Source: Escherichia coli
Lineage (GTDB): Bacteria > Pseudomonadota > Gammaproteobacteria > Enterobacterales > Enterobacteriaceae
Reading direction: 5' to 3' (one strand)
Assembly (NCBI RefSeq): GCF_003334815.1
Contig: NZ_QOWO01000002.1
DNA length: 64,000 bases
Made by a program: the position numbers and the translations under genes. Positions 3,251 to 6,755 of the stretch are shown here, in pieces (within the stretch, counting starts at the first letter, position 1; each line of letters opens with the position of its first letter). The notes beneath the pieces were generated by a model, which saw only the letters and a list, made by a program, of their open reading frames with translations, did not search any database and was not told the origin of the DNA.

Positions 3251-4008
3251 AAATGAATCTCCGCACTTAAAGGGGCATGATCAGAAAGGTGTCGCCATGT
3301 CCGCAGCGGCAACGCGGTTGGCGCGCTGGCGCTGGCATTTTTGACGTAGATCCTGTCCAGTCGTAGTAGAGGAAATTGCACCGGAAACGTGCGCGCCGGG
3401 CGTCCGTGGGCGCGGGTAAAAATCTCATCCAGTCCGGCCTGCACTTTTAACGGATGATTAGCTTTTTGCCGCCAGTCATTGAAATCACCCGCCACCAATA
3501 CCGGTTCGCCGTCCGGTAGCTCATTCACCCATTCGGCGAGCATCGCAAGCTGCGCCTGACGGTGCGCCTCACGCAGGCCCAGATGTACGCACATCACATG
3601 AATCGCTTTTCCGGTCATCGGCGGCACAATGCGGCAGTAGAGCACGCCGCGCTTTTCCGCACCATCGACCGAAACATCGCGATTCTCATAATGTTCAATG
3701 GGATAACGCGACAGTACGGCGTTGCCGTGATGCCCTTCCGGGTATACGGCATTGCGACCGTAGGCAAAATCGCTCCACATAGTGTCGGCGAGAAACTCGT
3801 AGTGCGAGGTATCGGGCCAGTTTTCCACATGCAGCGGATGAACTTCGTGCGCGCCCATCACTTCCTGCAGGCAAACAATATCGGCGCTGACGGTACGCAC
3901 GGCGTCGCGAAGTTCCGGCAAAATGAAGCGTCGGTTAAACGCGGTAAAGCCTTTGTGAATATTGATGGTGAGCACCTTGAACGAAAATTGTTGTGTTTGA
4001 TCGGGCAT
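3247..4008 (-). CDS. ybhP: Endonuclease/exonuclease/phosphatase-family protein YbhP
   Basis: ORF track 253 aa; stop overlaps clsB start; first gene of ybhP-clsB-ybhN unit. Confidence 0.85.
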
Positions 4009-4140
4009 AATTTTCCTGTCTTTGCCTCTTATCTCATTGAAATAGTGTAGTCGGCGTCACAAAAAGGTGCGGTCTTACGGAATTTTCCGTAAAGTTCGGT
4101 ACTCTGAGTAAGTAGAGATAAATTCTTCAGGAGAGAAGCC

Positions 4141-4551
4141 ATGAAGTGGCAACAACGTGTTCGTGTCGCAACGGGTCTAAGTTGCTGGCAGATTATGTTG
4201 CATTTACTGGTAGTGGCGCTGCTGGTGGTGGGCTGGATGAGTAAGACTCTGGTTCACGTCGGCGTGGGATTATGCGCACTGTATTGTGTCACGGTAGTGA
4301 TGATGCTGGTGTTTCAGCGCCACCCCGAGCAACGCTGGCGTGAGGTGGCAGACGTGCTGGAAGAGCTGACCACGACCTGGTATTTTGGCGCAGCGCTGAT
4401 TGTGCTGTGGCTGTTGTCCCGCGTTCTGGAAAACAACTTTTTGCTGGCAATTGCAGGGCTGGCAATCCTTGCCGGCCCGGCGGTAGTGTCTTTGCTGGCG
4501 AAAGATAAGAAGTTACATCACCTTACGTCTAAACATCGCGTACGCCGCTGA
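4141..4551 (+). CDS. ybhQ: Inner membrane protein YbhQ
   Basis: ORF track 136 aa, hydrophobic helices; 3' end overlaps the convergent ybhR 3' end. Confidence 0.8.
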
Positions 4552-5619
4552 CCCTGTCGTGGCCGTTATCACCAGTAGCGGCCACAAACTATTCCACACA
4601 ATATCCAGACTCGCATCCTTCAAATAAATCTGCTTGGTAATGTCCGTAAAGTGGCGAATAGGGTTAATCCACGTCAGGTTTTGCAGCCATACCGGCATGT
4701 TTTCCACCGGAGAAACGTAACCGGAAAGGAGAATGGCGGGCATCATAAAGACAAACACGCCGATAAACGCCTGCTGTTGTGTTGAACAGAGTGATGAAAT
4801 CAACAGACCGAATCCCACCAGCGATAAACCATAAATCACCATCGTAAAGTAGAACAGCGCCAGCGATCCGGCGAAGGGGATTTGATACGCCCAGATACCA
4901 ATCGCCAGCACAATGGTGGCCTGGAAGGTGGCGACAATTAACGCCGGTACGGCTTTGCCGATGAAGATCTGCCAGGTGGTGAGCGGCGAAACCAGTAGCT
5001 GATCGAGCGTACCTTGTTCACGTTCGCGGGCGACGGAAAGTGAAGTGACGATCATTACGCCGATAGTGGTGATCATGGCGATCAGTGACGGCACCACAAA
5101 CCATTTGTAGTCGAGATTCGGGTTATACCAGTTGCGTACCACCAGCTCGCTGTTGTTAGGTTTCGGTTTTCCTTCCAGCAGCTCCTGCTGATAATTTTTG
5201 ACGATCTGTTGCAGGTAGTTGGCGGCAATTTGCGCACTGTTGGAGTTACGCCCGTCGAGGATCAACTGCAAAGGCGCGGTCTGGAAGGTATCCAGTTTGC
5301 GCGAGAAGTCAGCCGGGAAACGCACCAGTAGTAACGCCTTTTGTGTGTCGATGGTTGGGCGGATCTCCTGTGGGCTTTTCAGCAGCAGCACATGAGTAAA
5401 GGCGCTGGCGCGGGCAAAACGTTGGGTCAGCTCCACCGAATGCTCGCCGTTATCTTCATCGTAGATGGCGATGGTGGCGTTAGTCACTTCCAGCGTGGCG
5501 GCGAACGGGAACAGGATCACCTGAATTAGCACGGGTAAAATCAGAATCGCGCGGGTTTGCGGTTCGCGCAGCAACGACTGCAACTCTTTGCGGATTAACG
5601 TCCATAAGCGATGAAACAT
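4513..5619 (-). CDS. ybhR: ABC-2 type transporter permease YbhR
   Basis: ORF track 368 aa; ABC-2 permease architecture (large N-terminal loop then TM bundle); in ybhGFSR operon. Confidence 0.9.
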
Positions 5620-5629
5620 GCTCTTCTCC

Positions 5630-6755
5630 CTAATCCAGCCGACGTTTGGTTTTCAGCCACGTCAGGCCGATAAACATCACCGCCGAAGCGATCAAAAACA
5701 GCACGTTTACCACCAGCACCACTGGAATATTCCCGGCGAGGAACAGGCTTTGCAGGGTGCTGACGAAATAACGAGCGGGAATAATGTACGTCACCGCGCG
5801 GATCACCGCGGGCATACTGTCGATCTGAAAAATAAAGCCGGAAAGCATAATCGACGGCAGAAAAGCGGCGTTCAGGGCGACCTGAGCGGCATTGAACTGG
5901 TTGCGGGTAATCGTGGAAATCAGCAGCCCCATCCCCAGGGTACTGAGTAAAAACAGGCTGGAGATAAAAAACAGAATCAGCAGCGACCCGCGATACGGCA
6001 CGCCGAGAATAAACACTGACACCAGCATACACAGCAACATCGCCAGCATCCCGAGAAAGTAATAAGTGATCAGCTTACACAGCAGCAGTTCCGTGCGGGT
6101 AATCTCCGTAGAGAGCAGAGCCTCCATGGTGCCGCGTTCCCATTCTCGCGCCACCACCAGCGAGGTGAGAATCGCGCCGATGACCGTCATGATAATGGTC
6201 ACCGCACCGGGGATAATGAAGTGCTGGCTAATCGCCGCCGGGTTAAACCAGTAGCGGGTTTGTACATCAATAAGCGGTTCAAAAGTCTGCCCGTTGTCCT
6301 CCGCTCGCTGCATTTGCCAGATCTGCCAGATCCCTTCGACATACCCCTGTACAAAGTTAGCGGTATTCGGCTCACTGCCGTCGGTGATCACCTGAATCGG
6401 TGCGGTGGCGTTGGCGCGCTCCATCTGTTCCGCAAAATCCACCGGAATAACCACCAGACCGCGAATTTTCCCCGCCTGCATTTTGGCGATCAGTTCCTGA
6501 CGGTTATCGCTGATGGTGGCGTCGATGTAGGGCGAACCGGTCATGGTGTGGGTGAAATCCAGCGCCGCTTCGCTACGCTGTTCCAGTAAAATCCCGACCC
6601 GCAGCTTGCTGGAGTCGAGGTTAATGCCGTAACCAAAAATAAACAGCAGTAGCAGCGGGATCACTACCGCAATCAGCCAGCTACTCGGATCGCGAACGAT
6701 CTGCCGCGTCTCTTTAACGCACAGCGCCCGTACGCGACGCCAGGACAGGATCGGG

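Follow-up and report, generated by a model that had tools for sequence, protein, structure and literature searches.

The 39-nucleotide convergent coding overlap of ybhQ and ybhR: conservation among Enterobacteriaceae and ends of the overlapping transcripts

The window analyzed here is a stretch of 64,000 nucleotides from the chromosome of Escherichia coli; a 1.7-kb region of it is shared by 5424 of the 5426 complete genomes of this species. Between positions 2009 and 8507 of the window, ybhQ is the sole gene on the + strand and lies between two units on the - strand, cecR-ybhGFSR and ybhP-clsB-ybhN, a geometry resembling that of a noncontiguous operon. The gene ybhQ (4141-4551, +) encodes an inner-membrane protein of 136 aa belonging to PF11076, a small family with 817 homologs and 66 representatives at 50% identity. 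Its convergent neighbor ybhR (4513-5619, -) encodes an ABC-2 permease of 368 aa and is the last gene of cecR-ybhGFSR, an operon that has been linked to CecR (Yamanaka 2016, as cited in PMC7190983).

According to the ORF list and the sequence, the two genes have 39 nt in common (4513-4551, both strands), which corresponds to 13 codons per gene, namely 12 sense codons and the stop codon. The overlap thus encodes residues 125-136 of YbhQ on one strand and residues 357-368 of YbhR on the other, each followed by the respective stop. The two frames are codon-aligned, with ybhR positions 3, 2, and 1 opposite ybhQ positions 1, 2, and 3. As a result, the TAA stop of ybhR (4513-4515, -) is at the same time codon 125 of ybhQ (TTA, Leu), and the TGA stop of ybhQ (4549-4551, +) is Ser357 of ybhR (TCA). 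The geometry is tail-to-tail, with ORFs on opposite strands sharing their 3' ends, and both partners are genuine conserved coding genes. The first-pass annotation, made from the sequence letters, had named these genes and placed their 3'-end overlap at 4513-4551. It was right in both respects, as the ORFs, the RefSeq annotation of E. coli strain 300709 with identical overlap coordinates, and the annotation of K-12 MG1655 (ybhQ 824630-825040, ybhR 825002-826108; same 39-nt overlap) agree.

Many long convergent overlaps have been attributed to misannotated 3' extensions (Pallejà et al.), and the overlap might accordingly be an artefact, with one stop position misassigned or ybhQ a spurious gene. 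Both stop codons are unambiguous in the sequence, however, and the lengths of YbhQ and YbhR are conserved across genera. Moreover, the part of ybhQ flanking the overlap, which is read in the ybhQ frame only, shows a coding pattern of substitution, with a conservation of 0.58 at codon position 3 vs 0.79 and 0.85 at positions 1 and 2. This variable third position indicates purifying selection on a real gene. Together with the membership in PF11076 and the detectable selection on the ybhQ stop codon itself (see below), this effectively refutes an annotation artefact.

The length of the overlap as such requires no special explanation. In the register of the overlap, antisense stop codons arise from the triplets TTA, CTA, and TCA, which together make up 2.6% of the ybhR codons. 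The probability of 12 consecutive codons without a stop is 0.73, and a length of 39 nt alone is therefore not beyond chance. The conservation of this exact length is beyond chance. In E. coli, about 75 convergent overlaps of coding sequences have been counted among 663 overlapping adjacent gene pairs (PMC4161906).

Conservation was assessed in a set of 80 Enterobacteriaceae loci with one genome per species, in which the YbhR orthologs are 83-100% identical. ybhR is convergent with and adjoins ybhQ in all 80 loci. In 65 of these species-representative loci the overlap is exactly 39 nt long, with YbhQ identities down to 63%. The genera concerned include Escherichia, Citrobacter, Salmonella, Leclercia, Enterobacter, Kluyvera, and Yokenella as well as Atlantibacter, Mangrovibacter, Cedecea, Siccibacter, Superficieibacter, Trabulsiella, and Pseudocitrobacter. 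The remaining 15 loci comprise 13 with a gap, one with an overlap of 48 nt (Kosakonia cowanii), and one with a ybhQ pseudogene. In the 13 gap loci, which belong to other Kosakonia, Phytobacter, Raoultella, Pluralibacter, and a few others, ybhQ and ybhR are separated by a spacer of 2-206 nt. YbhQ has a different tail there, such as ...PKAFGLHQGGxAANPxKHR, and a hairpin lies within the spacer in several loci.

The pseudogene was found in Escherichia albertii NBRC 107761, where codon 16 of ybhQ is changed from TGG to TAG, resulting in a premature stop (locus L006, 529-576). Downstream of the nonsense codon, the 39-nt overlap geometry and ybhR are intact, and the defect is probably specific to this strain. 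In E. coli UTAK-1 (NZ_CP157165.1, locus L002), where the matching region is 87.8% identical, ybhR, ybhS, and ybhF are annotated as frameshifted pseudogenes, which points to errors in the assembly or to decay of the efflux operon. Two Raoultella spacers (L068, 3384-3620; L070, 3481-3646) contain a tandem duplication of about 122 nt between ybhQ and ybhR, which includes another, divergent copy of the 3' end of ybhQ; the copies are 84-94% identical.

The common ending ...KHR prompted the idea that the longer YbhQ tail of genera without the overlap had originated from a tandem duplication of the overlap. This origin was rejected, as tail and spacer showed no significant similarity when aligned locally with the antisense strand of the 3' part of ybhR (p >= 0.04, uncorrected, in the 13 loci). 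Among more distant YbhQ homologs (33-50% identity, 121-130 aa; L083, L084, L086, L087, and L090), none has ybhR adjoining ybhQ. Because no outgroup with ybhR beside ybhQ was thus available, overlap and gap are not polarized with respect to each other. Three of the distant ybhQ genes (L083, L084, and L087) are located at or near the same moa/ybhL neighborhood, with genome or replicon sizes of 0.59-3.5 Mb. The contigs of L086 and L090 are <1 kb long and offer no context, and at least in these two cases the distant ybhQ ends in a hairpin of its own. A further member of the outgroup set, L089, is a frameshift-ridden assembly.

Within the YbhQ family alignment, the conserved core ends at about residue 123 with ...SLLxK[DE]K and is followed by a short, variable, basic tail in every lineage. 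The overlap therefore falls where YbhQ is least constrained. At ybhR positions 3, 2, and 1, the columns of the overlap have conservation values of 0.735, 0.904, and 0.88, respectively, compared to 0.779, 0.977, and 0.925 in the flank that is read in the ybhR frame only. Judged by this pattern, the shared segment appears to evolve mainly as ybhR coding sequence. Across genera, the ybhR stop reads TTA, CTA, or TCA on the + strand, meaning that all three ybhR stop codons are used. Residue 125 of YbhQ is correspondingly Leu or Ser and tracks the change among TAA, TAG, and TGA at a fixed position. The stop codon of ybhQ is TGA in 64 and TAG in two of the 66 loci with an overlap.

Codon diversity was determined for 313 informative ybhR codons in 61 species with the 39-nt overlap and in 14 species without it, the latter consisting of the 13 with a gap and K. 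cowanii with its 48-nt overlap. A general excess of synonymous constraint over the whole overlap was not found, as indicated by the third-position values given above, and the windows of lowest diversity in ybhR are located elsewhere. The constraint is instead confined to specific codons of the overlap. Codon 357 is TCA in 59 of the 61 overlap species and CTA (Leu) in the other two, and CTA still provides ybhQ with a TAG stop. Of the 18 conserved Ser positions, Ser357 alone shows no synonymous diversity, although TCA accounts for just 15.5% of the Ser codons in ybhR. Ala359 is encoded by GCG in 58 of 61 species, which sets Arg135 of YbhQ, and Phe363 is encoded by TTT in 57 of 61 species, which sets Lys131 of YbhQ rather than Glu. 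Among the 14 species without the 39-nt overlap, codon 357 is TCA in eight, TCG in three, and ACC, ACA, and GCA in one each, and Phe363 is encoded by TTC in nine and by TTT in five. Comparison of both groups at codons 357, 359, and 363 yields p = 1.5e-5, 0.02, and 8.5e-6, respectively (Fisher), in tests that ignore phylogenetic relatedness and with non-overlap species that may amount to one or two clades. The sequences thus suggest that freezing affects three ybhR codons, those that determine the ybhQ stop and two basic residues of the YbhQ tail, and that these codons are relaxed in species without the overlap.

The first-pass annotation had further considered convergent transcription through the overlap, and it named transcripts ending before the overlap on both strands as the outcome that would refute its idea. 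Published data for E. coli K-12 contradict this outcome and show that convergent transcription through the overlap does take place. By Term-seq, a 3' end at K-12 position 825080 (+) has been mapped under two growth conditions and classified as primary for ybhQ and antisense to ybhR (PMC7815308, Adams 2021). This steady-state 3' end of the ybhQ mRNA corresponds to window position 4591 and thus lies 40 nt beyond the overlap. Conversion of K-12 into window positions was based on the MG1655 gene coordinates and the layout of the sequence column in the Term-seq table, which was checked on the sgrS terminator. In addition, peaks of Rho termination regions have been reported inside both partner genes, at 4693 (K-12 825182, +) antisense to ybhR and at 4440 (K-12 824929, -) antisense to ybhQ (PMC7815308). 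At 4693, 73 reads upstream and 20 reads downstream were counted without bicyclomycin (BCM), and 110 and 119 reads with it (Rho score 3.95, p = 5e-7). For the transcript of the ybhR operon at 4440, the respective counts were 99 and 23 without BCM and 105 and 94 with it (Rho score 3.85, p = 2e-7). The resolution of these peaks is coarse, as they stem from a published table with 800-nt windows and low read counts. The pair ybhQ-ybhR is also listed among 165 convergent excludons, detected in >=50% of 58 MG1655 RNA-seq samples (ExcludonFinder 2025, PMC12288877). According to these data both transcripts cross the overlap, as interference would presuppose, and the RNAs are complementary over at least ~4440-4591.

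There is no intergenic DNA that could hold a bidirectional intrinsic terminator between the two genes, and the tails AAACUAUU (+) and GACAGGGU (-) gave no match in the terminator scan. In this consensus scan for intrinsic terminators, no terminator-like site was detected after the stop codon of either ybhQ or ybhR. A search of positions 3900-5000 with Rfam covariance models gave no match at E <= 1. The 3' UTR of ybhQ can, however, form a stem-loop at 4559-4585 (+), which was not flagged by the scan. It begins 8 nt past the ybhQ stop, contains an 11-bp stem in both the MFE and the centroid fold, and is followed by AAACUAUUCC, which is not a U-tract. The mapped 3' end at 4591 is located 6 nt past the stem. 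From 4552 to ~4640 (+), the ybhQ 3' UTR is rut-like, being rich in C and poor in G, with C/G values of 2.0-3.6 in 60-nt windows; over the entire 64-kb window, the 99th percentile is 2.16.

This stem-loop is embedded in codons 345-354 of ybhR. Over 75 distinct sequences, 92% of the alignment cells in the stem are paired, and 55 of 61 overlap sequences form every pair of the core stem, compared to 8 of 14 non-overlap sequences. Synonymous diversity of stem codons is 0.03 for Pro347, 0.11 for Ala352, and 0.0 for Ala353, each the lowest or near the lowest for its amino acid in ybhR. The codons of the loop (0.29-0.51) and the adjacent Thr354 (0.56) are not frozen. Compensatory changes occur at two pairs, in six cells vs 1.0 in shuffled alignments (0 of 500 shuffles reached the observed value), and wobble variants favor the RNA of the + strand (22 vs 10). 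The consensus from RNAalifold retains the inner 4 bp only, with a weak covariation term of -0.25. The hairpin is therefore supported by thermodynamics, by synonymous constraint, and by the mapped 3' end, not by covariation. A further point against it is that its arms also specify conserved W-P and A-A residues of YbhR with preferred codons.

On the opposite strand, a weak stem-loop of uncertain significance is present past the ybhR stop in the centroid structure (4453-4481, -). The sequence past this stop folds no better than shuffled sequences do (z = -0.13), and a structured element was rejected here. The unremarkable fold agrees with the Term-seq table, which has no entry of a stable 3' end for ybhR or at this stem-loop (PMC7815308). 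The consensus scan reported one terminator-like hairpin within ybhQ itself (4469-4486, +), consisting of TTGCCGGCCCGGCGG followed by TAGTGTCTTT, about 65 nt ahead of the ybhQ stop. The codons for the invariant G-P-A motif of YbhQ lie in this hairpin, which coincides with the weak stem-loop of the - strand, just upstream of the Rho peak on that strand.

The overlapping transcripts raise the question of a regulatory function, and the first-pass annotation had suggested that mutual interference between ybhQ and the CecR-regulated efflux operon could result. In a functional excludon, convergent transcription and/or RNase III cleavage of a duplex of ~150+ nt would make ybhQ and the CecR-controlled ybhGFSR antagonistic, and the overlap and the hairpin would be under selection for this purpose. 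This would be in line with both transcripts crossing the overlap, with the entry in the excludon catalogue, and with the strong conservation of the hairpin and of gene adjacency in all 80 loci. The catalogue entry, however, follows almost automatically from the gene arrangement: since the coding sequences overlap, full-length mRNAs must overlap as well, and an excludon is called as soon as both genes are expressed. Coverage by DirectRNA-seq is low, with the 73 (+) and 99 (-) reads per 800-nt window mentioned above, and the low abundance of both transcripts argues for rare encounters of polymerases. Furthermore, a spacer separates ybhQ and ybhR in several genera, and coding lock-in accounts for the conservation equally well. 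In the literature, neither a demonstration of mutual interference nor a report of reciprocal expression, dsRNA, or RNase III processing was found for ybhQ-ybhR. A functional excludon is thus possible but unlikely, and to judge from the read counts, interference is probably weak at the observed low expression.

A second regulatory explanation is based on the position of ybhQ as a lone + strand gene between two - strand operons. If Rho were inefficient under certain conditions, transcripts of cecR-ybhGFSR could read through antisense to ybhQ into ybhP-clsB-ybhN, which would connect efflux with cardiolipin and membrane genes and silence ybhQ in the process. With bicyclomycin, the number of downstream reads on the - strand increases from 23 to 94, which fits such a conditional noncontiguous operon (PMC7815308). 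In untreated cells, however, Rho stops these transcripts within the ybhQ antisense region (PMC7815308), and the three noncontiguous operons listed for E. coli by ExcludonFinder do not include the ybhQ locus (PMC12288877). The locus therefore has the geometry of a noncontiguous operon but does not qualify as one, and this explanation is highly improbable. It is also doubtful that the terminator-free junction as a whole is a selected device, in which hairpin and frozen overlap would guarantee the ~150+ nt duplex and antagonism between ybhQ and the YbhFSR pump, or in which reduced Rho activity would allow readthrough of the efflux operon into ybhP-clsB-ybhN.

The best explanation, to which a probability of about 0.7 can be assigned, is an ancient dual-coding overlap that is kept mostly by lock-in and doubles as a terminator-free junction, with Rho ending each mRNA inside the partner gene. 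The short basic tail of YbhQ would be encoded opposite the final 12 codons of ybhR, in a codon-aligned register with few stops. Constraints on YbhR would dominate the segment, with added selection retaining the ybhQ stop as well as Lys131 and Arg135. Either stop could be moved only if the partner gene had certain Leu or Ser codons, and for this reason the length of 39 nt is presumably frozen. Past each stop codon, the untranslated RNA would be open to Rho. The ybhQ mRNA ends 6 nt past the hairpin without U-tract that is embedded in ybhR, with the C-rich stretch and the Rho region located just downstream, and Rho halts the transcript of the ybhR operon about 70 nt into the ybhQ antisense region. 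When both genes are expressed, the RNAs of ybhQ and ybhR consequently overlap by at least ~150 nt. Most likely, this overlap is a by-product with weak or no regulatory consequence.

Rho and NusG suppress antisense transcription, and Rho reportedly terminates untranslated antisense RNA within a gene after ~100-200 nt (Peters et al. 2012). Unlike the spurious transcripts of that system, the antisense RNAs at ybhQ and ybhR are 3' extensions of genuine mRNAs. For Rho-dependent 3' ends, Dar and Sorek 2018 (PMC6061677) describe a stem-loop lacking a U-tract, a precise end after it, and a rut-like stretch with Rho-dependent termination closely downstream. ybhQ resembles this type in its stable stem-loop without a U run, the precise 3' end directly after the stem, and the C-rich stretch with bicyclomycin-sensitive termination directly downstream. 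The end 6 nt after the stem, the Rho score of 3.95, and the excess of C over G agree with such ends. It differs from the type described there in that the module lies inside a convergent coding sequence and its arms also encode L-W-P and A-A-T of YbhR.

Like other convergent excludons (PMC12288877), ybhQ and ybhR are neighboring genes whose transcripts overlap at their 3' ends; unlike in this group in general, the coding sequences overlap and not only the 3' UTRs. The pair also resembles conserved convergent overlaps of coding sequences (Rogozin 2002, as cited in PMC2478687; Huvet and Stumpf 2014, PMC4161906), which are tail-to-tail and set by the position of the stop codons, and it has the orientation in which true longer overlaps occur. 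It differs from them in that the exact length is conserved over many genera and the dual-coding signal is measurable in both frames. Possibly real convergent overlaps of >60 bp were found to be mostly conserved in very close species only (Pallejà et al.).

The overlap is thus well conserved and of an ordinary, known kind. It is annotated in every E. coli genome, and the overlapping transcription is already contained in published tables and in the excludon catalogue. Although not surprising to a specialist, the comparative details provide a clean small example of two genes that have both sequence and signals for termination in common. They comprise the exact length of 39 nt across genera, the rare Ser codon that ybhR holds only where it doubles as the ybhQ stop, and a Rho-type hairpin in the synonymous sites of the partner gene. 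The idea of interference could be probed with synonymous mutations that leave both proteins unchanged.

Some minor observations concern the 5' part of ybhQ. The Term-seq table contains an ORF-internal 3' end at window position 4201 (K-12 824690, +), 60 nt into ybhQ, in LB at OD 0.4, with a Rho score of 0.6 and Rho dependence marked as 'No' (PMC7815308). This end could represent premature termination or a processing site early in ybhQ. A sigma70 scan of positions 3800-5800 revealed no promoter-like site. The divergent intergenic region between ybhP and ybhQ extends from 4009 to 4140. In Salmonella, a sigmaE ChIP-seq peak has been found between ybhP and ybhQ (PMC4577112), and the E. coli start site 'ybhQ2' responds to induction of sigmaE, though it is not known as sigmaE-transcribed (PMC7075262). 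Expression of ybhQ is possibly responsive to envelope stress and sigmaE.
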